Assembly (NCBI GenBank): GCA_963833125.1
Contig: CAWHWX010000001.1
Coordinates: 160,001-224,000, forward strand
Length of the DNA: 64,000 nt
Source: Candidatus Bathyarchaeota archaeon
GTDB lineage: Archaea > Thermoproteota > Bathyarchaeia > 40CM-2-53-6
Direction of reading: 5' to 3'
Part shown: piece by piece, positions 7,411-64,000 of the stretch
Layout: each line of letters opens with the position of its first letter
Numbering within the stretch: the first letter of the stretch is position 1
Position numbers and translations under genes: made by a program
The notes under the pieces: model-generated
What the model saw: the letters and a program-made list of their open reading frames with translations, nothing else
Told to the model about the DNA's origin: nothing
Databases searched by the model: none

Positions 7411-10400
7411 GTGAACAACCTCCTGAGTAACATCGGGATTAGTAACAATAACGCCGCCAGTAAGCCGGCGCTATCTATACCCGGAGCCGGATTGAAGGGT
7501 GTGGGTTGGGTTTGGAAGCCGCATGGTAGTGGTCCGCATGGGACGGTTGTGAATTGGGTGGTGGTTGAGAAGGTGACCGTGGTTTGGGTTTGTGTTGTGG
7601 AGCTGGTTGAGGTGAATTGGGTGGATGTCATTCCGGAGACTGTGGTGATCGTGAAGTGGGTGAAGGTTGTGAAGAAGATGCCGGTTGTGCTGTAGGTGGT
7701 TGATGAGTAGCTGAAGCTGGTGGCGACGCTGGTTGTGGTTGTGGACTGGGAGGTGGTGGTTGAGGATGAGGTTGTTGTTGAGCTGAATGTGGTTATGGTG
7801 GTTGCTAGGGTGACGCCGAGGAAGTTGGACGCAAAGTCGAGGCTATCTCCTGGCGGGCAGGTTGGAGGCGTGCTCGTTGTCTGAGCAGTAGGAGCGACGC
7901 TGCACCCGGTTACGCGTGATCAAGTAATAGCCACCAGGCGCAGTAGGGAGACACAACGAACGCTCCGGAAGCGTATCCGCTGCTCATCAGACACGTCACA
8001 GGGTGGGTAAGGTCGAATAACGAATTTCCGGAAGCTGAGCTTATCGTGCAGAACGCGTCTTGCGCATTGAAACCGGTACCTGCAACCCCAACCGCCAGAC
8101 CCTGTTCCACGCTGGCCGGATTCAGCACTACTAAGGCGGATGGCGTTCCTACTGTGAAGACAGCTGATGCATTCGAGCCTGTATTATCTCCGACCTCAAT
8201 CGCGTACGTACCCGCAAGAGCCGTTGAGGGTACGATGACTGAGCCCGAGACTTGGCCGAATGGGTCAATGGCGCAACTCGGCTGGACCGTAGATCCCTTG
8301 AATGTAGGAATCACAGTAGCATTGCATTTTGTCGCATCCGACTCAAAGCCCGTGCCGGTGTAGGTGAAGACTGAGTTGATCGTTCCGGATGTGGGGACGA
8401 CCGTTATTTGGGCAGTTACGCCGAACGGTGCACCGATGGGGTGTAAGGTTCCGTTGAGTAAGTCGTTTGCAGGGTGATCCCTTCACCGTTACGTTCCAGT
8501 GAATATCTTCAGTGGCGTACGGGCTTACTACGAAGCTGCCTTGTGCCAACTGCGGAGACACGATGGAGCAGGTTGGGGAAGTTATCAGCGTATTATCCTG
8601 ATGTAGCGGTGTGATGTCGCCGCTGAAAGCTAGGATTACGCAACCCGTATCTGATGTCGACAAACCATACGCTCTGACAATAACCGTTGCGCCTGTAGTT
8701 GCGTTGGTTGGGAAGAGATCGATTTCTGATTGGCCAGGGATGACTCTCAGGACGGCTTGAGCAAAGTCCCCTACACTTGGAGCACAGCCATTGTTGCCGC
8801 CGCAACCTGTGACCTCAATCACGTACTGACCCGGCGAAGCGGTGCCGATGATGAAGCTGGCGCTCACGTTCCCTTGCGTTGATCCAACTGTGATAACGCA
8901 TCCAGAGGAACCTGGGAGTATGGGGTTGGGTGTGCTGGGGCTACTGACTGAGCATGATTGGTCTGTTGGGAGGAACCCGGTACCATTCACCAGAATCTCC
9001 TGCCCAATCATACCCGTCCCAGGACTCAACGTAAGCCTAGGCCCACCAACAACCTTGAGATTGGCCTGCGCAAAGTCGCCGACGCTTGGAGCGCAGCCGT
9101 TGTTTCCACGACAACCAGTTATCTCGATTACGTATTGACCGGGGAGCACATTACCAATCGTAAAACTACCATTAACAACCCCAGTACCGACGTTGATAAC
9201 GCAGCTCGCTGAACCAGACAAGATTGCACTATGGCCATTAGCATCAAACCCGACACTTGAGACAGTGCAACTCGTATCTGTGGGGAGGAACCCTGTACCG
9301 TTGACTAGAATATCGAAACCAGGCGAACCAGTCGACGGACGCAAACTAATACTAGGCCCACCCACCACGTTCAACACTGCCTGCGCAAAGTCACCGACGC
9401 TTGGAGTACAGCCGTTGTTCCCAAGACAACCCGTAATCTCAATAATGTACTGACCAGGGAGAACGTTACCAATCGTGAAACTACCATTAACGATCCCAGT
9501 ACCAACCCTAATCCCACAAGCAGACGTACCAGACAAGAGTGGGCTGTGACCATTAGCGTCAAATCCAACGGCTGAGATCGTACAGCTAGTATCGGTAGGT
9601 AGGAACCCAGTACCGTTGACTAGGATGTGCGCACCCGGTTGACCAGTCGACGGAGTCAAACCAATGATAGGCCCACTAACCACGTTGAGTAACGCTTGTG
9701 CAAAATCACCGACGCTTGGAGTGCAACCATTGTTTCCAAGACAACCCGTGACTTCAATTATGTATTGGCCGGGGAGTACATTACCAATTGTGAAGCTAGC
9801 GTTAACAATCCCAGTTCCAACATTGATGGTACAAGCCGCCGTACCCGACAAGATTGCACTATGGCCATTAGCATCAAACCCGACAGTTGAGAGACTGCAA
9901 CTCGTATCCGTGGGTAGGAACCCTGTACCGTTGACTAGGATGTGCGCGCCAGGCTGACCAGTCGACGGACGCAAACTAATCCTAGGTCCATTCACCACAT
10001 TGATTACTGCTTGCGCAAAGTCACCGACGCTCGGAGTACAGCCGTTGTTACCACCACAACCCGTAACCTCAATCGCGTATTGGCCGGGGAGCACATTACC
10101 AATCGTGAAACTACCGTTAACAACTCCACTACCAACAGTTATGGCACAACCAGCAGTCCCAGCCAACAGTGGACTGTGGCCATTAGCATCAAACCCAACC
10201 GATGAGATCGTGCAACTAGTATCGGTAGGCAGGAATCCAGTACCGTTAACTAGAACATGGACACCCGGTTGACCAGTCGACGGCTTCAACTTAATCGCCG
10301 GCCCACCCACCACATTCAAGACTTCTTGCGCAAAGTCACCGACGCTCGGCGTACAACCATTATTTCCAAGACAACCCGTAACCTCAATCACGTATTGACC

Positions 10401-13400
10401 AGGGAGTACGTTACCAACCGTGAAACTACCGCTTACAACTCCAGTACCAACCCTAATCCCACAAGCCGCCGTACCGGACAAGAGTGGACTATGACCATTC
10501 GAATCAAACCCAACCGCTGAGATCGTGCAACTAGTATCGGTAGGCAGGAATCCAGTACCGTTAACTAGGATGTGAGCACCAGTGCGGGCGCTCGCGGGGC
10601 TCAGTGTTATTACGGTCCATTCACCACGTTCAAGACTGCTTGCGCAAAATCACCTGAACTGGGGAAGCAACCGTTATTTCCACCACAGCCCGTAACCTCA
10701 ATCACGTATTGGCCGGGGAGTACATTACCAATCGTGAAACTACCGTTAACAGCTCCACTTCCGACAGTTATGGCACAACCAGCAGTACCTGACAAGAGTG
10801 GGCTATGACCGTTAGCGTCAAAACCAACCGCTGAGACCGTACAACTAGTATCTGTGGGTAGGAACCCAGTACCGTTGACTAGGATGTGAGCACCCGGTTG
10901 ACCAGTCGACGGATTCAAACCAATCACCGGCCCACCCACCACATTCAAGACTGCCTGCGCAAAATCACCTGAGCTAGGGAAGCAGCCGTTATTTCCACGA
11001 CAACCCGTAACCTCAATCACGTATTGACCAGGGAGTACATTACCAATCGTGAAACTACCGCCAACGATTCCACTGCCAACACTTATGACACAAGCCGCAG
11101 TACCCGACAAGAGTGGGCTATGACCGTTAGCGTCAAAACCGACAGCTGAAACAGTGCAACTAGTATCTGTGGGTAGGAACCCAGTACCGTTGACTAGGAT
11201 GTGAGCACCAGTGCGGGCACTCGCCGGACTCAACTTTATCACCGGTCCATTAACCACGTTCAATACTGCTTGCGCAAAGTCGCCTGAGCTAGGGAAACAG
11301 CCGTTGTTCCCAAGACAGCCTGTAATCTCGATAATGTACTGACCAGGGAGAACATTCCCAATCGTGAAACTACCATTAACCACTCCACTACCAACCCTAA
11401 TCCCACAAGCCGCAGTACCAGACAGGAGTGGACTATGGCCATTAGCATCAAACCCAACCGCTGAGACCGTACAGCTAGTATCGGTGGGTAGGAACCCAGT
11501 ACCGTTGACTAGGATGTGCGCACCCGGTTGTCCAGTCGACGGGGCTCAAACCAATCACCGGCCCACTAACCACATTCAACACTGCTTGCGCAAAATCACC
11601 TGAGCTAGGGAAACAACCATTATTCCCGCTACAACCCGTAATCTCGATTACATATTGGCCGGGGAGCACGTTACCAATCGTGAAACTACCATTAACAACC
11701 CCACTACCAACCTCTATGGCACAAGCGGCGGTACCCGACAACATTGGGCTATGCCCATTAGCATCAAAACCGACACTCGAAACAGTACAACTCGTATCCG
11801 TCGGCAAGAACCCTGTACCATTAACCTCAACATGAACACCAGGCTGACCAGTAGCAGGATTCAAACTAATTTTAGGACCACCCACCACATTCAACAAAGC
11901 TTGAGCTGTGTCGATCTGGAGGTTTGTAGTACTGGTGAACGTGGTGGTAGTAGAAGACGAGGTAGCCGTGGTCGCCGTGGTAGTGCTAGCTGCTAATGTG
12001 GTGGTTACGGTTGAGATAATACCTGAAGAAGCATCGATCTCAATCACATACTGACCTGGGGGTACATTTCCGACGGTGAAACTAGCATTCACAACCCCAG
12101 ATCCTTCCTGAATAATGCAAGCCGCCGTCCCGGCTAAGATTGGATTCACAAGGTTGCTGGAACCACTAACAAGAACGCAAGTCGTGTCTGAAGGAAGGAA
12201 CCCAGTACCATTGACCTCAACATGCGTACCCGGCGCAGTCTGAGGACGGAAACAGGAAAATCGATGGCCCACTGACAACGAAGAGGACAGCTTGCGCAAA
12301 ATCGCCAACGCTCGGGGAACAACCATTGTTGCCTCTACACCCAGTGATCTCAATCACATACTGCCCCGGCTGCACATTAGAGACAATGAAACTAGCATTA
12401 ACGAAACCCGTCCCAGCATTGATGACGCAGCCTTCAGTGCCTGGAACTATCACCTCGAGGGAGGCGGGAATACCCGACACGCTACACGAAGTATCGGTCG
12501 GCAAAAAGCCAGTACCATTAACTGCGATATGGGCCCCAGTACGTGCGGTCGACGGAAACAACTTAATCGCTGGTCCACTCACCACGTTCAATACTGCTTG
12601 CGCAAAATCACCTGAGCTAGGGAAGCAGCCGTTATTTCCACGACAACCCGTAACCTCGATTATGTATTGGCCTGGAAGCACATTACCAATCGTGAAACTA
12701 CCATTAACCACTCCACTACCAACCCTAATCCCACAAGCCGCAGTACCCGACAAGAGTGGGCTATGCCCGTTAGCATCAAAACCAACACTCGAAACAGTAC
12801 AACTCGTATCCGTCGGCAAGAACCCTGTACCATTAACCAGAATGTGCGCACCCGGTTGTCCAGTCGACGGACGCAAGCCAATCACTGGCCCATTCACGAC
12901 GTTCAACACTGCTTGCGCAAAATCACCTGAACTGGGGAAGCAACCGTTATTCCCACCACAACCCGTAACCTCAATAATGTACTGACCAGGGAGAACGCTC
13001 CCAATCGTAAAACTACCATTAACCACTCCACTACCAACCCTAATCCCACAAGCCGCAGTACCCGACAAGAGTGGGCTATGCCCGTTAGCATCAAAACCAA
13101 CACTAGTAACAGTACAACTCGTATCCGTCGGCAAGAACCCAGTACCGTTGACTAGGATATGCGCACCAGGCTGACCAGTTGACGGAGTCAAACCAATGAT
13201 AGGCCCACTAACCACGTTAAGTACAGCTTGCGCAAAGTCACCGACGCTTGGAGTACAGCCGTTATTTCCACGACAACCCGTAATCTCAATAATGTACTGA
13301 CCAGGGAGAACGCTCCCAATCGTGAAACTACCATTAACCACTCCACTACCAACCCTAATCCCACAAGCCGCAGTACCCGACAAGAGTGGGCTATGCCCGT

Positions 13401-14631
13401 TAGCATCAAAACCAACCGCTGAGACCGTACAGCTAGTATCGGTGGGTAGGAACCCAGTACCGTTGACTAGGATGTGCGCACCCGGTTGTCCAGTCGACGG
13501 AGTCAAACCAATCACCGGCCCACTAACCACATTCAACACTGCCTGCGCAAAATCACCTGAACTGGGGAAGCAACCGTTGTTCCCAAGACAGCCTGTAATC
13601 TCGATTATGTATTGGCCGGGGAGAACGTTACCAATCGTAAAACTACCATTAACAACCCCAGTACCAACCCTAATCCCACAAGCCGCAGTACCCGACAACA
13701 GTGGGCTATGCCCGTTAGCATCAAAACCAACACTAGTAACAGTACAACTCGTATCCGTCGGCAAGAACCCAGTACCGTTGACTAGGATATGCGCGCCAGG
13801 CTGACCAGTTGACGGAATCAAACCAATCACCGGCCCACTAACCACATTCAACACTGCCTGCGCAAAATCGCCCGAGCTGGGGTTACAACCATTATTCCCA
13901 CCACAACCCGTGACCTCAATTACGTATTGGCCGGGGAGCACGTTACCAATCGTAAAACTACCATTAACAACCCCACTTCCAACAGTTATGGCACAACCCG
14001 CAGTACCCGACAAGAGTGGGCTATGCCCGTTAGCATCAAAACCAACACTAGTAACAGTACAACTCGTATCGGTGGGTTGGAACCCTGTACCGTTGACTAG
14101 GATGTGCGCACCAGGCTGACCAGTCGAAGGCTTCAAACTAATGATGGGGCCTGACTTCACGGTGAAGATTGCTTGTACGAAGTCGCCGGCGCTGGGAGCG
14201 CATCCAGTGTTCCCGACGCAAGACGTAATCTCGATTACATACTGGCCTGGTAGAACGTTTCCAACCGTAAAGCTTCCCGTAAAATTCCCGTTGTTCGTAC
14301 CCCCGTTTATGGCGCAGGCTGCTTGCGTAATTATGTTTGGATTAGTTGGACTTGAGACAGAGCAACTAGTCTCGAAACCGGTTGTTACAGTCCCACCTGT
14401 TGTCGTGGTGCCACTAATACTCGCGCTCGCGATGGTCCCATTAAACTGAACATCTTCTCCAGTAGGACCCGTAGTCGGAAAGAGATCTAGGAAGTTCGCG
14501 GTTTGCGTGGTTGCAACAGCTTGGGGAACTGGCGTGAACATGTTGGACTGTGCGGTCGTTGCAGCGAATGCGGATAGGACAAGGAGCAGTGTGACTATGT
14601 ATTTGATGCGGCGGAGTTTCAACTCAAGCAC
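7407..14631 (-). CDS. Giant cell-surface protein with ~21 tandem Ig-like (IPT/TIG-like) Cys-rich repeats, Thr-rich stalk and C-terminal TM anchor; one gene split by six single-base indels
   Basis: ORFs 12217..14631, 11475..12353, 10610..11383, 8343..10481, 7910..8314 and 7407..7631 join at indels near 12241(+1), 11543(+1), 10613(-1), 8472(+1), 7947(+1) and 7914(+1); 7225-4=7221 nt = 2406 aa + stop. N-terminal signal peptide; C-terminus PAPGIDSAGLLAALLLLIPMLLRRLFT. Confidence 0.85.
8740..14150 (-). repeat. Coding tandem repeat array, 315-bp (105-aa) unit
   Basis: Unit P.I.L.PSTGQPGAHILVNGTGFLPTDTSCTVS.VGFDANGHSPLLSGTA.C.I.VG.G.VNGSFTIGNVLPGQY.IE.TGC.GNNGC.PS.GDFAQAVLNVV.G recurs about 17 times here, two or three copies divergent. 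Confidence 0.95.
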
Positions 14632-36633: not shown

Positions 36634-37403
36634 TTGTCCGGCACCATCAAACATTATTTTGATACTACGGTGGTGTTGGCTCAGAAAGACTTCAAGATCC
36701 GCTACAGGAATTCTGTCCTCGGGTTCCTCTGGTCTCTGCTCAATCCGCTTGCGTACATGTTGATCCTGAGTCTAGTGTTCAGCTTTCTTCTTCACCAAAA
36801 TATACCTCACTATGCAGCGTGGGTTCTCATTGCAATCCTTAGCTTGGAGATTCTTCACCGTTGGCACCAGTCAAGGATTGATGTCGATCGTTGGAAATCC
36901 GTCATTAGTGACCAAAATCTATTTACCGCGTTATTTGATAGTCCTTTCAAATAATACTGCGAATTTCATCGGCGCAGTGATGGAATTCGTGGCGTTACTG
37001 CCCTTGCTCGTGTTCTTGGGTGCCAATTTCACGATTGACGTGATCTTGCTTCCTCTCTTCCTAGTGTTTGAGTTCTGCCTCATATTCGCTTTGTCATTAT
37101 CCCTTGCATCGCTCAATGTCAAGTACCGAGACTTCTATCAACTATGGGATATCGCGCTTCAGCTGGGTTTCTGGTTATCACCAATCGTCTACGATGTCAG
37201 TGCTATTCCATCACGATATCAGTCACTATACCTGTTAAACCCGATGGCGCGCTTGATAGGAGCTCTGCGAGGCAATCCTGCTCTTCAATCAACTGCCGTC
37301 AATATCCGATTATCTCGTAATGCTCGGTAGCATAGCAATTTTGATGACTATGGGATTCCTGATATTCAGGTCGGTCGAAGGAAAATTCGCGGAGGAACTT
37401 TGA
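36634..37403 (+). CDS. wzm: Polysaccharide ABC transporter permease; frameshifts near 36840 and 37270
   Basis: DFKIRYRNSVLGFLWSLLNPL, LVTKIYLPR, KYRDF, WLSPIVY, LNPM; shifted C-terminus ends FAEEL* at 37403. Confidence 0.9.
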
Positions 37404-37413
37404 AACGTCGCTC

Positions 37414-38181
37414 TTGAAAATAGACGGAGTTTGGAAGAAATTCACGATTCCGCACGAGAAACGAGCCAATGTCTTTGACTACTTGGCGAGCGTACTGTCT
37501 ATCTTCGAGGGAGAACGGTACACGTTTGAAACGTTTTGGGCGCTGAAAGACATCAATGTGAACTTGGATTACGGAGAGTCTTTGGGAATTATTGGCTCGA
37601 ACGGAAGCGGGAAAAGCACTCTACTAAAACTAATCGCGCACATCATGAACCCGGAAAAGGGACTCATTACCCTTAACGGTTCTTCTGCGTCCATACTTGA
37701 ACTAGGTTTAGGTTTTCACGGCGATTTGACCGTTAAGGAGAATGCCGTCGTCTATGGGGTGTTGATGGGAATCCCTCGTTCAGAAATTAAGAAACGCATT
37801 CCTGAAATTGTTGATTTTGGAGGACTAACCAGATTTCAGGATGCTAAACTCAAGACACTATCAACGGGAATGAGTGTACGACTTGCTTTCTCGATTGCCA
37901 TCCAAACAAAAGCCAACATTTTCCTAATAGATGAGGCACTTGCAGTAGGTGATGCAGAATTTCAGGAGAAATGCTTCCGCAAATTCACCGAATTCAAAAG
38001 GGACAAGAAATCAATCATCCTCGTATCACACAACATGAAGTTAATCAATCGATTCTGCGAAAAAACACTCTACCTGGCTAATGGAGAAGTAAGAACGCTC
38101 GGAAACAGCGACGAAGTTACGAGCCGGTACTTGCAAGACGTTAAATCAAGTGACGGGACAATCAACAACACGCTGTCCTAA
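37414..38181 (+). CDS. wzt: Polysaccharide ABC transporter ATP-binding protein without C-terminal carbohydrate-binding domain
   Basis: FWALKDI, GSNGSGKST, LSTGM..RLAF, IDEALAVGDAEFQEKC, VSHN; 255 aa. Confidence 0.93.
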   Translation: MKIDGVWKKFTIPHEKRANVFDYLASVLSIFEGERYTFETFWALKDINVNLDYGESLGIIGSNGSGKSTLLKLIAHIMNPEKGLITLNGSSASILELGLGFHGDLTVKENAVVYGVLMGIPRSEIKKRIPEIVDFGGLTRFQDAKLKTLSTGMSVRLAFSIAIQTKANIFLIDEALAVGDAEFQEKCFRKFTEFKRDKKSIILVSHNMKLINRFCEKTLYLANGEVRTLGNSDEVTSRYLQDVKSSDGTINNTLS

Positions 38182-38365: not shown

Positions 38366-39473
38366 ATGAAAGAATCTGAGGGCAACAATCGAAGAAGTTT
38401 CCTCCGCAAAATCTTGACAGTTACAGCTTCTGCTGGCGTCGCTGGGTTACTCCTTGATCGACTACCCGGGAAAAGACGTTATTCCGCCGGTTCAGGCCGA
38501 TAACCCAATGGAAGATTGACACTGCGAACACGGGAAGCAGTATAACGTCTTTCTCCAGCGGTGGGAATGCAGCTCTAATGGCTACGAATACTATGAATGG
38601 TGCTGCGCTTCAGGGGACCTGTACTGTTGGAACCGGCGTCTTGGGAACTACTACTACTGGCACGGGTGTGCAGGGAACGGCATCATCTTCACCTGGTGTG
38701 GCGGTGGCCGGTTTCGGATCTGGAGGAGGGACTGGGGTAAGTGGGCTATCTGACACGGGGGTGCCGGTCTTTGCCACTAGCGGCGGATTCGAGGAGTATC
38801 AATTCCTCAAGTCGGGTGGTTCGCAGTATAGCCGGATGCATGCGACTGGGGATGGAATTAACAGGTTTGCTGTGAACATGAGTTATGATGGGACGCACTT
38901 CAACTTGGATAATACGGCGGATAACGGCGTCTCATTCCTAGTCAATTCAAACCTTAACGCGAGCTCCATCTTCGCAATCCAATACATCTCCCCAGGTTCT
39001 AATCCCGTCCTGCTCCTGTAAGTCGTACTTGGTCATGAAACCGAATGGAAACGTTGGAATCGGAACCGCCACGCCCAGCTTACCTACTCGACGTAGCTGG
39101 CGCCGTGCATGCTACCAGCTTCCCCACCAGCTCGGATATGCGTTTCAAGGAAGATATTCAACCCATCGATAATGCGCTTGAGAAAGTCTTAGCCTTGAAA
39201 GGCGTATACTTCAAGTGGAATGATCTGCACCGTGATGTGTTGAAGAGAGATAATACTGTGAACCGGCAGATCGGGTTGGTTGCGCAGCAAGTCAGGGAGG
39301 TGCTTCCTGAGGTTGTGTCGGAATGGGCTGATCAGGGTGCGGAGGACTACCTAGCCGTAGACTACAGCAGACTCACTGCAGTTACTATCGAGGCAATCAA
39401 GGAACTGAAAGCAGAGAATAACACGCTGCGAGACCGAATCGGAGTTCTTGAAAGAAAACTAGCGGCAAGCTAG
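38366..39473 (+). CDS. Tat-signal fibre-like protein with C-terminal peptidase S74 intramolecular chaperone; several frameshifts
   Basis: ATG 38366 MKESEGNNRRSFLRKILTVTASAGVAGLLL...(shift)VIPPVQA; Gly/Thr repeats GTGVLG/GTGVQG/GTGVSG; NGNVGIGTATP.YLLDVAG; TSSDMRFKEDIQPIDNALEKV..LKGVYF.W, IGLVAQQV.EVLPEVV, VDYSRL, terminal coiled coil. Confidence 0.8.
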
Positions 39474-39499
39474 TCTTCTCTTCATTTTTTCCCGTCATA

Positions 39500-40111
39500 A
39501 GCCGTTGAAGGTCCGACTCGTGAACTACAATCTGATCATTTCTTCTCGAAAACCGTACAAGCGAACGTACTATATTCATCAGCAGATTCGTTTTAGGCCG
39601 TAATGAGAAGTGCTTCCTCAAGCGTCTCTGCAGATTTCCTAATGAATAATCACGAAGATTCTCATGGTTCCAAGGAGGTTGCAGTGGAAGGAGTCTCACT
39701 GCCCTGTTGGGTGTTTTTAGAAGCAGACAACCATCTTCCGTCAAGACCCGCCGCAGTTCGGACAAGAGGATATCTGGCTGGGGAACGTGTTCAATGGCTT
39801 CAAAGCATGTCACTAGTTGAAAGGACGATCTCGTGAACCCCAATCTCCGGGCATCCATGACTGACACTCCCAGATGCTGCGTAGAGGCGGACCATTTTGA
39901 CAATTGACTGATTTTGGTCCTATCTATGTCTGAGGGCTACAACCTGGTTGGCCCTCTCGGCCAACCATAACGAGCCGTGTCCCGGATCGCATGCCACATC
40001 TAGGATTGTCTTCCTCGAAGCAAGTTGACCAGTGTAAACGTATGGGGTAAGAAGGCGTATGAACTCGAGGTTGGAAACACCCTCGGGTTTTGAAGGTAGT
40101 TCGAAGTTCAA
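39500..40111 (-). pseudogene. Degenerate class I SAM methyltransferase
   Basis: ILDVACDPGHG (degenerate motif I), FQLVTCFEAIEHV, LRRVLTEDG..KTPN; split into two ORFs with an eroded C-terminus. Confidence 0.7.
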
Positions 40112-40347
40112 GTGGTTCCGTTTTTCGTTCAGAGAATTTTAATGCCGCATGCCCAATGACCCAACTCCAGTAAAGCTAACGAGCATTTTCTTCTATCAAT
40201 TTCGGCGCCAAACTAGACGCCACTACACGAATCCTTGGTACAATTCAATTGTTATTTCCTCGTTTTTCTTCATGTTGAATTTCACCTCGACGGTCCATAC
40301 ACCCCGTCCCATTCTTCTCATTGAGTAAGGGTTCTTCACTAAGGAAA

Positions 40348-40566
40348 TTATCCCCCTGGCAATAGCAATTCGATTCCAGTGTAGTGATCAGGAAAATTCG
40401 TACCCTCCCAAAATGAACGATCGCCACACACTACATCTATGACATCATCAACAGATTTTACGTATTTGTCGATGGTTTCCCATTTCCTAGATTCTCCGAT
40501 AGAACCCTCTCCGCTGGACCCACCTTTCTTGTAGAGTTCTTCCCAATATCCCATGTTTATTGTCAC
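40348..40566 (-). pseudogene. N-terminal remnant of a methyltransferase
   Basis: YWEELYKKGGSSGEGS...VIDVVCGD...YTGIE, then truncated. Confidence 0.6.
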
Positions 40567-62792: not shown

Positions 62793-64000
62793 TTAGAAAG
62801 ATCGGGTGATTGGTTTGAAGTTAGGTCGGGTTTGCTGGTGGGATGCGTAGATGGCTAACGCGAGGCTCCATAGTTGGTCGTCATGTGTGCCGGTTGGGTG
62901 GCTGAACTTGAGCGTTCCGGCTTTGGTGGGTTCGCATTGTTGTGCGGTCATTTGGGTTAGGAGTTGTTGATTGTCTCTTGGGAGTGTGAGTTTGCCTTGT
63001 TCTAATGCGAGTTTGAGTTTGCCCATGATGTCTTCTTTCGCTTGTGCGGTTAGGGTGATTCCTTCTATTCCTCGCATGAATTGTTTGGTCTCTTCGTAGG
63101 GGCCTTCACCCACTCCGGTCTTGTCGAGGCATCCTCCGGCAAAGGCGTAGGCCTGGTTCAATCTCCTCACTGTGCCTATTACCGAGGTGTATGGGGTTTC
63201 TAGCGGCAGTTCGTTAAGGTAGATGAGGTGAAGTTGGTCGTGGTCTTTCTCTAGGATGGCTATTGCAGAGTGGTCTGCGTGTTTTCCGAAGTCTATTCCG
63301 ATGATGTATTCGCCTCGGTGCTTTTCCGTTGGTTTAGGTTCTTGGTTTAGCTCGTAGTCATCTGTGCAGGTGAGGATTAGGTTGCTTGGTAGGTAGCTGA
63401 ATTCGTCGTCGATGAAAGCGGCGTTGTATTCACGATTATAATCGTATTCTCCTATTGTGTTTCTTTCCCGTTCAAGTTTCTTGGGGGTGATTAGTGGGTT
63501 GAGGGATGAGGGCCAGGTGTAGGTTTTGAAGCCTAGCTCGGGTTTGCTGAGGGCTTCGTGGAATGGGTGGTCACGCACCCAGGGCGTCGAGATCATAATC
63601 AACCTTGAGTTGTCGCGGGTTATCATGGTGGGTCTGATTACTGAGTCGATGACTAGTCTCGGAATGAAGTTCGCTTCATCCAGGATGACCATGTCTGCTG
63701 TGTATCCTCGGAGAGTTGCTCCGTCTCTTCCGCATGGTAGGGCAACAATCTCGGAGAGGTTTGCGAAGCGGATCTTGGTTCTAGACTGGTAGGTCATTAG
63801 TTTCTTTGCTGGGATGGAGTTTTCGGCTAGGTGGAGGATTTTGTCGAAGAGTATCATGCTCTGTCTTAGGCCGGCGCTGACGATCAAAGTGCGAGTTGCT
63901 TCGTTGGCGAGGGTGTAGTGGAGGGCTTTGATGGCGGTTAGGGTTGTTTTTCCAACTTGTCGGCCGCAGCAGGCGGCGATGAGTGGGGATTGGTCGCGTA
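62793..64000 (-). CDS. terL: Terminase large subunit (ATPase plus RNase H-like nuclease), 5'-partial
   Basis: Frame open to the window end with Walker A CGRQVGKT; LRG, Walker B VILDEA, ISTP, REYNAAF, GIDFGK..D, DKTGVG, HDDQLWSLALA. Confidence 0.92.
   Translation of the reverse strand, partial: RDQSPLIAACCGRQVGKTTLTAIKALHYTLANEATRTLIVSAGLRQSMILFDKILHLAENSIPAKKLMTYQSRTKIRFANLSEIVALPCGRDGATLRGYTADMVILDEANFIPRLVIDSVIRPTMITRDNSRLIMISTPWVRDHPFHEALSKPELGFKTYTWPSSLNPLITPKKLERERNTIGEYDYNREYNAAFIDDEFSYLPSNLILTCTDDYELNQEPKPTEKHRGEYIIGIDFGKHADHSAIAILEKDHDQLHLIYLNELPLETPYTSVIGTVRRLNQAYAFAGGCLDKTGVGEGPYEETKQFMRGIEGITLTAQAKEDIMGKLKLALEQGKLTLPRDNQQLLTQMTAQQCEPTKAGTLKFSHPTGTHDDQLWSLALAIYASHQQTRPNFKPITRSF

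Follow-up and report, generated by a model that had tools for sequence, protein, structure and literature searches.

Positions 38366 to 39473 on the forward strand of the window (the whole stretch of 64,000 nucleotides of bathyarchaeal DNA that was analysed) probably encode a precursor of about 367 residues from which a small homotrimeric fibre, secreted and of the phage-tail-fibre or mosaic adhesive trimer (MAT) type, would be made, in a copy whose reading frame has most likely been broken by assembly errors. From the N- to the C-terminus the precursor is composed of a twin-arginine signal peptide, a glycine-rich stalk module, a variable head, a GNVGIGT capping loop and an S74 intramolecular chaperone. 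S74 chaperones that cleave themselves are well known from phage fibres, and the twin-arginine (Tat) pathway is the export route for folded proteins. Every motif that an initial sequence-only reading of the locus had named lies where that reading placed it. The same reading took the gene for two fragments preceded by an unlisted leader; instead, it consists of five colinear pieces across three frames, joined by four +1 shifts, and all five align in order to intact homologues (tblastn or alignment).

The first piece (38366..38473, +) carries the ATG and the leader MKESEGNNRRSFLRK with its h-region ILTVTASAGVAGLLL, and ends in LPGK. The two arginines are encoded at 38390-38395 within the motif NNRRSFLRK, which is followed by the hydrophobic core, and the piece is 94% identical over 36 residues to the leader of the intact protein P0021. 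The first frame break (+1, 38471..38476, +) is one base more than in the orthologues of genomes G016 and G019, the DNA reading gggaaaagAcg in the window and ggaaaaag-cg in the orthologues. The second piece (38475..38510, +) matches residues 27-48 of P0021 by tblastn and completes the signal peptide; the site predicted for signal peptidase is PVQA (38487-38498), which lies in the frame after that of the leader and has V at -3 and A at -1, and the pattern LPxVQA is kept throughout the family alignment A1. At the second break (+1, 38511..38514, +) the window has four bases where relatives have one codon (atggAagattg against atgg-tgattg). The third piece begins with the conserved glycine-rich N-terminal stalk module (38515..38709, +), which runs from NAALMATNT to GAALQGTCTVGTGVLGTTTTGTGVQGTASS and is 72-85% identical to P0016, P0125 and P0017, and continues into the variable head (38710..39006, +), which runs from GFEEYQFLKSGG to FAIQYISPGSNP. 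No Pfam or PHROG family matched the head, which is 66% identical over 108 residues to that of P0297, an RR-led S74 protein whose stalk and S74 subtype both differ from those of the window gene.

Comparison with P0297 places the third break (+1) somewhere within the 19 bases of 39007..39025 (+), between GSNP and SYLVM. The fourth piece (39026..39076, +), recovered by tblastn matches, contains the capping-loop motif GNVGIGT at 39047-39067, in which G, I, G and T vary little or not at all across alignments A1 and A2, and this region aligns to the Bdellovibrio protein Bd2133 (PDB 8ond). The fourth break (+1, 39074..39077, +) is an extra base in 'ccca', where homologues read TPAY. The fifth piece (39078..39470, +, stop codon 39471-39473) is composed of the last stalk strand AYLLDVAGAVHATSFPTS, the S74 chaperone and a C-terminal helix, and is 85% identical over 133 residues to P0020. 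Its Peptidase_S74 domain scores 61.9 bits on PF13884 (cut-off 22, E 7.2e-17) and spans 39132-39317, or residues 30-91 of the last, 142-residue open piece. The domain starts with the catalytic motif SDMRFK (39132-39149), which can be read directly from the DNA and whose S, D, R and K are unchanged in all 16 sequences of A1 and all 20 of A2; the MAT fibre study defines SDxxxK as the S74 catalytic motif (PMC10769870).

The four frame breaks in the window copy are most likely errors of assembly and not decay. Compared with their G016 orthologues, neighbouring genes at 34-56 kb contain 8 further frame breaks and, in 2,585 aligned residues, no internal stop codon (the count includes three stops, each of which ends its gene). 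The shift is +1 in 11 of the 12 breaks and in most is a single base inserted outside homopolymers, unlike the usual slippage pattern, and amino acid identity to intact relatives is high on either side of every break. In the same assembly rpoB is frameshifted inside a conserved motif, on contig C14 near 90.2 kb, a TGA interrupts the frame of the gene of ribosomal protein L15e, and the gene of one class I tRNA synthetase is split into many pieces; because these essential single-copy genes, which cannot be pseudogenes, are damaged as well, the breaks are probably errors. Programmed frameshifting and phase variation were rejected as causes because the same type of break occurs in unrelated neighbours and in rpoB.

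It is unlikely that the window copy is a genuine recent pseudogene in a decaying glycan island, with only a paralogue on contig 28 still working. This reading draws on the density of the breaks, 4 in 1.1 kb of the fibre gene and 12 in about 24 kb, which is far above that of the many long ORFs that are intact elsewhere in the window and concentrates them in the 34-56 kb island. The orthologues in G019 and G016 are interrupted too, the first by a TAG in frame where a Gln codon is conserved and the second by a 1-bp insertion, which could mean that the family decays frequently. Set against this are the broken essential genes, the nearly uniform direction of the shifts and the count of 8 frameshifts against no nonsense codon in the neighbours. 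Public reads were drawn from three peat-metagenome runs of one study, the best of which contained 0.12 of the sampled words. At a likeness of at least 85% these runs gave 16 short contigs (14, 2 and 0 per run), of which 12 were less than 95% and none at least 99% alike; none of the 16 extends across a break site, and at none of the four sites is an indel reported. Given that single-base errors reach even rpoB, 'broken' genes in this assembly should not be taken for pseudogenes unless reads support it.

The architecture itself does not depend on the broken copy. An intact paralogue of 323 residues is encoded in the same genome (C28:154843-155814), and a search for proteins that combine a Tat leader with an S74 domain, as the sequence-only reading had suggested, found both in one gene in this paralogue and in P0021, P0020, P0016, P0017 and P0012, the intact metagenome relatives carrying the same leader as the window gene. 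The threshold of PF13884 is likewise passed by the paralogue and by all 8 S74-bearing homologues (11 proteins scanned). The N-terminal module is common to 35 proteins, of which 20 carry PF13884 and 15 end in other tips; tips of at least four unrelated kinds are interchanged in the family, and RR-led members are present in the relatives G003, G015, G029 and G183. The S74 family at large is very large, with 225,858 profile matches at E<=0.001 among 1.84 billion representatives searched, and the top matches are giant repeat proteins of 1,200-7,900 residues. A scan of representative genomes with the family alignment returned 8 distant S74 proteins only, and the matching patterns lay in the S74 part; these proteins come from CPR bacteria, Omnitrophota, a Nanoarchaeia MAG and others.

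That the protein forms a homotrimer is supported by a model of three copies of the paralogue (residues 55-323), which scores 0.90, while the best of three controls scores 0.00. In calibration, 20 of 30 proteins whose solved structures are pairs of one chain attained this mark, as did 1 of 23 whose structures are single chains. At least 95% of contacts recur between runs, the partner pLDDT is at least 83 and the interface extends along the whole chain, though the pass may reflect likeness to S74 trimers that have already been solved. The AlphaFold monomer of P0021 is poor (pLDDT 48.1, pTM 0.23). A non-S74 tip is modelled as a jelly-roll beta-sandwich (pLDDT 75.3) for which Foldseek returns weak matches throughout (best E 1.3e-4, TM <=0.53), namely birnavirus VP2, a cyanophage fibre domain, Chlamydia Pgp3 and Bdellovibrio Bd1399, and to which no fold is assigned.

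The fibre gene is located directly downstream of, and on the same strand as, a wzm-like ABC-2 permease gene (36634-37403, +, PF01061, with two frame breaks relative to the intact G016 orthologue) and a wzt-like ATPase gene (37414-38181, +, PF00005, intact), in a window that lies in an island of glycosyltransferase, epimerase and wzm-wzt genes. The same island, intact, houses the fibre gene in G016, and in G019 the gene lies directly 3' of a glycosyltransferase gene that is orthologous to its G016 neighbour. In all six long metagenome loci it is found among glycosyltransferase, UDP-sugar, methyltransferase or ABC-2 genes, which brings glycan-biosynthesis islands to 9 of the 9 contexts examined. 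The gene thus appears to be a standing member of a strain-variable surface-glycan island, and because this linkage is constant a glycan-related role is favoured. The tip of the fibre most likely binds a polysaccharide, or perhaps trims one, which may belong to the cell itself or to a neighbour, and the fibre could serve as an adhesin, a decoy or a glycan-binder. No membrane or cell-wall anchor was identified in the fibre, and the mature form might therefore simply be released.

A purely enzymatic role, in which the mature trimer would be a tailspike-like depolymerase that trims the polysaccharide made and exported by the neighbouring glycosyltransferase and Wzm/Wzt genes, is improbable, and so is its more specific form, in which the enzyme sets chain length or frees the polymer. 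The adjoining glycan-biosynthesis and ABC-2 export genes and the position directly after wzm-wzt would fit such a role, S74 was first described on endosialidase tailspikes, and Pfam names PF13884 'Chaperone of endosialidase'. However, the mature part has only about 200 residues and matched no Pfam hydrolase or lyase family, the four or more unrelated kinds of swapped tip suit binding modules better than a conserved active site, and the sole tip that was modelled is the jelly-roll, which resembles viral capsid and fibre tips weakly at best (TM up to 0.53).

Tat substrates share a consensus of an S/T-R-R-x-F-L-K n-region, a moderately hydrophobic h-region and a cleavage site of the A-x-A type, and the window gene has all of these elements in NNRRSFLRK, the h-region and PVQA. 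Its leader, scanned as a 45-residue piece, passes the TIGR01409 (TAT_signal_seq) model with 20.0 bits against a cut-off of 16.7, and is the only one of 12 proteins scanned to do so; P0021 (15.8), the G016 protein (14.4) and P0017 (8.1) fall below the cut-off and the other 8, including the intact paralogue, give no match, nor did any Tat-signal family from Pfam match the leader at E<=0.1. All 16 family members aligned in A1 have the arginine pair, and a rule for RR leaders devised for this analysis is passed by 33 of the 35 proteins with the N-terminal module, the other two being N-terminally truncated. The genome also encodes the machinery, with TatC on contig C34 (143.6 bits) and three matches to TatA_B_E (TatA-like) over the cut-off, two of which flank tatC. 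Use of the pathway looks selective, judging from sequence, since a loose RR rule is passed by 23 of the 6,404 ORFs of at least 100 residues in the genome and since few of the best S74 homologues, 19 of 120, and no giant S74 repeat protein have an RR leader.

It is very improbable that the RR segment is a Sec signal or an uncleaved N-terminal membrane anchor and that the fibre folds outside the cell. Sec-like leaders or none are usual in S74 relatives, an RR leader being present in 19 of the 120 best S74 homologues (101 without) and in none of the 142 giant repeat proteins, the Bdellovibrio MAT fibres have ordinary signal peptides (PMC10769870), and the TIGR01409 scan passed a single protein. 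Against this stand the full RR-x-F-L-R/K consensus, which goes beyond two arginines, its conservation across the family, and the presence of TatC and TatA. The predicted trimer, moreover, is intertwined over its full length and would be hard to build from chains released singly outside the cell.

The most likely order of events for a Tat-exported fibre can be sketched as a proposal. Three chains would fold and intertwine in the cytoplasm, driven by S74, and the S74 domain would then cut itself off just N-terminal to its catalytic serine (FPTS | SDMRFK). The finished trimer, with its RR leaders still attached, would be exported in the folded state through TatA/TatC, after which signal peptidase would remove the leader. 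As there is no outer membrane, and three unfolded chains would be hard to join outside the cell, assembly is placed first and export afterwards; this order, like the cleavage itself and the nature of the ligand, is inferred.

The closest known system is the MAT fibre superfamily of Bdellovibrio bacteriovorus (Caulton et al. 2024, PMC10769870), of which the archaeal family would be a small, Tat-led and glycan-island-linked variant. Both are cell-encoded, signal-peptide-bearing, phage-fibre-like trimers (the archaeal trimer being a model); they are alike in organisation in that each has a conserved N-terminal module of its own, about 130 residues long in the MATs, directly after the signal peptide, and both swap tips and place a capping-loop motif beside S74. 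Both also mix S74 and non-S74 members, at 13 and 8 in the MAT superfamily (PMC10769870) and 20 and 15 in the archaeal family. The family profile matches solved MAT tips, with Bd2133 (8ond) at E 8.8e-13 in addition to 8oml, 8ojn, 8ol4 and 8on4, and one MAT is described there as binding prey surface glycans (PMC10769870). The differences are that the host is an archaeon and not a predatory bacterium, that the leaders are twin-arginine and not ordinary signal peptides, that the archaeal proteins have 280-560 residues whereas cited MAT constructs reach residues 922-1,031, and that a genome has 1 or 2 copies as opposed to the 21 reported for Bdellovibrio (PMC10769870). Unlike the MAT genes, the archaeal fibre genes always lie inside a glycan-biosynthesis island in the contexts examined.

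Phage fibres share the C-terminal Peptidase_S74 with SDxxxK and the beta-helical stalk before it; examples named in the MAT study are the C-terminal chaperone of the K1F endosialidase (3GW6) and the L-shaped tail fibre pb1 of T5 (4UW8) (PMC10769870). At the C-terminus there are matches to PHROG tail-fibre families, the best at 1.9e-32, and the distal subunit of a T4-like long tail fibre (6f45) matches the family profile at 1.8e-7. Virion fibres, however, have no export signal and are encoded in tail gene modules, whereas the archaeal protein has a Tat leader and cellular neighbours. The best solved match to the family profile is the ICA domain of myelin regulatory factor (MyRF, 7dc3, E 1.9e-14), which covers the GIGT loop, SD..K, the chaperone and the C-terminal helix. 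Like the archaeal family, MyRF is a cellular use of S74 for trimerisation and self-cleavage; unlike it, MyRF is a eukaryotic membrane-bound transcription factor in which cleavage frees a DNA-binding trimer into the cell and not a secreted fibre. Bacterial proteins named 'Tail fiber domain-containing protein' by NCBI (P0065, P0084 and the giant GIGT-repeat proteins) are relatives as well and share the repeat unit ..IVAQG..QTANLQEW..NGNFGIGT.. and the S74 end, but their leaders are Sec-like or missing. Some bacterial relatives carry a T9SS sorting domain (PF18962) or a YadA head (PF05658). In the literature searched, which included few subscription journals, no paper links Tat export or cellular fibres of archaea to S74 or to intramolecular chaperones.

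The setting of the gene is cellular and not proviral. The sequence-only reading had stated that no other virion genes are nearby, which holds within 20 kb in the window but not at 23 kb, where a terminase-large-subunit-like ORF (62793-63998, -) lies behind cellular sugar genes and has housekeeping genes after it. No virion gene is present among 15 neighbours in G016 either, and S74 excepted, capsid, portal, terminase and tail families matched none of the 80 ORFs of the six metagenome loci at E<=1e-6. That the gene belongs to a virus, a provirus or a phage-tail-like particle, with glycan neighbours by coincidence, is almost certainly wrong: its S74 end does match 42 PHROG families (22 of the 25 listed are tail families, and for the other 3 no function is known) and a related S74 end occurs on 59 viral contigs, and there is the terminase-like ORF, but viral matches are restricted to the S74 end (residues 224 onward, 26-60% identity) or to a generic repeat (best E 1e-9), none spans the leader and the whole protein, and the N-terminal module, the head and the non-S74 tip match no PHROG family. 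The description of the protein as domesticated viral is not established by these matches, since the S74 end matches many phage fibre families but also belongs to a family of very large extent, and the closest solved relatives of that end include the Bdellovibrio MAT fibres and the eukaryotic MyRF.

The locus is best read as encoding a Tat-led, putatively S74-matured fibre of a cellular archaeon. To our knowledge no surface appendage has been characterised in the host group. Cell-surface adhesins built with S74 were shown only recently, in a predatory bacterium, and the same kit is now seen in uncultured soil and peat archaea. A wider proposal, which is put forward tentatively, is that one archaeal order, the Bathyarchaeia, has MAT-like fibres of its own that are assembled in the cytoplasm with or without S74 and exported folded by Tat, and whose tips co-diversify with the glycans. 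The fibre gene would be kept in a hypervariable surface-glycan island in each strain, and tip and glycan type would therefore diversify together, which suggests a surface fibre anchored to the cell's own glycan, or a device for the recognition of kin, partners or viruses, in the last case as a decoy. If true, an intertwined trimeric fibre would be seen for the first time to depend on Tat for its export, and the cargo range of Tat would widen to an elongated, intertwined trimer. The intact paralogue on contig 28, which at about 300 residues is expressible, would be a model for S74 maturation, and the constant placement in glycan islands is a testable lead on the ligands of the fibres, which, if the proposal is borne out, would be the first candidate surface recognition fibres for an abundant archaeal group.

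The fibre gene occupies positions 38366-39473 of the forward strand and is composed of one coding sequence spread over three forward frames as five consecutive pieces. The first (38366-38473) reads MKESEGNNRRSFLRKILTVTASAGVAGLLLDRLPGK and matches TAT_signal_seq of NCBIfam (20.0 bits vs a cut-off of 16.7), the second (38475-38510, next frame) reads DVIPPVQADNPM, and the third (38515-39006, next frame) contains a Gly/Thr-rich stretch followed by a region without family match. The fourth piece (39026-39076) contains the GNVGIGT motif, and the fifth (39078-39470, stop at 39471-39473) starts with AYLLDVAGAVHATSFPTSSDMRFKEDI and carries the chaperone domain Peptidase_S74 (PF13884; E 7.2e-17, 61.9 bits vs a cut-off of 22). 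The sequence-only reading had described two fragments and an unlisted leader; instead, four frame changes are required, all +1. Its individual features, from the Tat leader to S74, were all recovered by reading the sequence and with Pfam and NCBIfam. The five pieces are colinear with intact homologues when metagenome proteins are compared with the window by tblastn, and a domain 66% identical to the variable head (38710-39006) is present in P0297, an RR-led protein whose stalk is longer and whose S74 domain is of another subtype. A convergent methyltransferase ORF (39397-39903, minus strand) overlaps the final 77 bases of the fibre gene (ORF 39045-39473, plus strand); this methyltransferase is itself split (39397-40566) and the overlap may be a further frame artefact.

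To judge from intact relatives, the fibre architecture is real irrespective of the state of the window copy. Contig 28 of the source genome (G000) encodes an intact 323 aa paralogue with a RRKVFRK leader, a hydrophobic core, an EVHA site, GNVGIGT and S74, which shares 61% identity with the window copy across the last 126 residues. A protein search likewise retrieved intact metagenome proteins in which a leader near-identical to that of the window copy is contiguous with S74; the N-terminus of the homologue P0021 is MKESDRNNRRSFLRKILTVTASAGVAGLLLDRLPGKSVIQPVQA, and the C-terminus of P0020 is 85% identical to that of the window copy. Both arginines are invariant in an alignment of 16 intact leader-S74 relatives. 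The proposal of a viral-type fibre secreted by a cellular archaeon is supported in part, including in the joining of Tat leader and S74 in single proteins and in the cellular context.

The family is modular. A search with the conserved Gly-rich N-terminal stalk module (the 138-aa version from the relative G019) found 35 longer proteins, of which 20 contain PF13884 and 15 do not; 33 pass our own pattern rule for an RR leader and the remaining two are N-terminally truncated. At least four kinds of C-terminus occur: S74, in two subtypes (SSDMRFKE... and SSVRWKEN...), a beta-sandwich tip with the ending ...IAYTVVEI, an end ...KIPYYA, and an end ...KGKxxQDL in the relatives G029 and G183. Of the best 120 S74 homologues, 19 have a Tat leader, each a close relative, and the 142 giant repeat proteins at the top of the profile search all lack one, so that on present sequences Tat leaders are peculiar to this clade of S74 proteins. 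The giants (P0155-P0296; 1,200-7,900 aa) have 11-51 stretches that match the repeat of the family profile, and in many the stretch with the top score sits at the very C-terminus, where it covers the S74 part of the profile. Metagenome locus L134 (8302-11633) carries a tandem pair of RR-type S74 fibre genes (450 and 530 aa), and L123 (9977-12711) a 542-aa fibre gene followed by a Peptidase_A4 gene.

The monomer model of P0021 is poor. Three copies of the mature paralogue give a trimer model score of 0.90, compared to 0.00 for the best of three controls; in calibration, proteins solved as same-chain pairs attained this mark in 20 of 30 cases and those solved as single chains in 1 of 23, and because solved S74 trimers exist the score is a measure of likeness and not proof. 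At least 95% of contacts are common to the runs, pLDDT is at least 83, and the interface spans residues 55-321. In the proposed mechanism three precursors would fold and intertwine in the cytoplasm, guided by the S74 domain if present, which would cut ahead of its own serine (...FPTS / SDMRFK...). The folded trimer would then be exported by TatAC and the leader removed by signal peptidase after PVQA, and the fibre of ~200 residues per chain may stay on or leave the cell surface and engage a glycan. Members without S74 have the same leader, which suggests that the Tat route accompanies the trimeric stalk rather than S74 per se. The source genome encodes TatC (143.6 bits) and three TatA-like genes, two of which adjoin tatC. 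Among its 6,404 ORFs of 100 aa or more, just 23 pass a loose RR rule, and under half of these seem genuine by eye; the organism uses Tat sparingly, and the leader on the fibres would therefore be a specific choice. Just downstream of the intact paralogue (C28:154843-155814) lies a gene for a 137-aa Ser/Thr-rich repeat protein (L002 1981-2394) ending ...VPEFQPDVPALLIALMLVAACIAARRRKR, which we take to resemble a PEF-CTERM-type archaeosortase sorting signal.

The frame breaks in the window copy are probably assembly errors. Comparison of neighbouring genes with intact orthologues of the relative G016 (58-91% amino-acid identity over the HSPs counted) revealed eight further breaks, two each in wzm and a 578-aa GT2 gene, one in a methyltransferase-GT and one in each of three further GTs, with no internal stop in 2,585 aligned residues. 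Eleven of the twelve breaks are +1 shifts, and those in well-aligned DNA are single inserted bases rather than homopolymer extensions, all of which argues against real decay of the gene. Decay is also at odds with damage to essential genes: rpoB changes frame within the conserved ...RTDSR / HILHYPQVP... stretch (G000:C14 ~90.1-90.3 kb, L061), the sole L15e gene has an in-frame TGA (G000:C7:47566-48033, L051) and one of four class I tRNA synthetase genes is in many pieces (G000:C19:78.3-79.9 kb, L055). Decay nevertheless finds support in the unusually high density of breaks at the fibre locus and in the orthologous RR-led fibres with a non-S74 beta-sandwich tip in G019 (L026 1553-2479, G019:C14) and G016 (L028 707-1643, G016:C1), which are both interrupted, the former by a TAG exactly at the conserved Gln codon of GQTANLQEW and the latter by one inserted base near the end; on balance it is improbable. 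With essential genes damaged in this MAG, reads are needed before its broken genes are called pseudogenes.

According to Pfam the window is a long surface-glycan island with many GT2, GT1 and PMT-like transferases, methyltransferases, a UDP-GlcNAc 2-epimerase, two UDP-glucose dehydrogenases and a NAD epimerase, and the fibre gene follows immediately after wzm-wzt in the same orientation. Three large adjoining ORFs (8343-14631, minus strand; 712, 257 and 804 aa) that repeatedly match CarboxypepD_reg / transthyretin-like beta-sandwiches are probably big surface proteins at the island edge. The same island, with intact genes, is found in G016, where the RR-led fibre gene with its non-S74 tip is located ~10 kb from wzm-wzt and flanked by glycosyltransferases; the arrangement in G019 is the same. 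Six long metagenome loci likewise place the fibre gene amid GT, sugar-nucleotide, methyltransferase or ABC-2 genes, and their 80 ORFs include no capsid, portal, terminase or tail family except S74 (E<=1e-6); one of the 80 has a retropepsin-like aspartyl-protease domain. Related S74 ends are found on viral contigs (59 loci, 26-60% identity, from query residue 224 onward), as is the generic repeat (73 loci, with 1e-9 as the best E), but none of these matched contigs encodes the leader with the whole protein. PHROG matches are limited to the S74 end, with none for the N-terminal module, head or non-S74 tip. A terminase-large-subunit-like ORF (62793-63998, minus strand, running past the window end; G000:C1 to ~224.0 kb, L037; Terminase_6C 2.1e-6, phrog_2 1e-23) is accompanied only by two small ORFs, after which come genes for GTP cyclohydrolase I, a QueD-like PTPS, QueC and ribonucleotide reductase and then housekeeping genes. 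The ORF may, along with 7-deazaguanine genes, represent the remains of a virus.

The source genome is a 3.07-Mb MAG of 39 contigs (87.8% complete, 7% contamination) and is archaeal, as it contains Ribosomal_L15e, which among 14 control genomes was detected only in the four archaea. Of 301 genomes sampled from its class, 5 (this one among them) contain the N-terminal module and 3 contain PF13884, while the paralogue is matched in 8 of 41 close relatives; the fibres are a patchy accessory family. The family profile matches eight distinct solved sequences, including MyRF (7dc3, E 1.9e-14), Bdellovibrio Bd2133 (8ond, E 8.8e-13) with four other entries of the mosaic adhesive trimer (MAT) fibres of Bdellovibrio bacteriovorus, a T4-type long tail fibre tip (6f45) and a putative tail fibre protein (8jov, E 2.1e-4). 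In the accessible text of the MAT study, the set comprises 21 fibres, 13 with S74 (SDxxxK) and 8 without, each with a conserved ~130-aa domain immediately behind the signal peptide, and with varied tips; the fibres are presented on the cell surface, one binds prey glycans, and self-cleavage occurs at the catalytic serine, which remains on the chaperone (PMC10769870). As far as that text goes, the archaeal family follows the same logic of signal peptide, conserved N-terminal module, S74/non-S74 split and diverse tips, but is set apart by its host, size, copy number and Tat leader and by its place in glycan islands. No published description of an archaeal Tat-led S74 or MAT-like fibre was found in the literature searched. 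Cellular S74 and MAT-like fibres are thus a kind already known; what is new about this predicted fibre family is that it is archaeal, Tat-led and resident in glycan islands.
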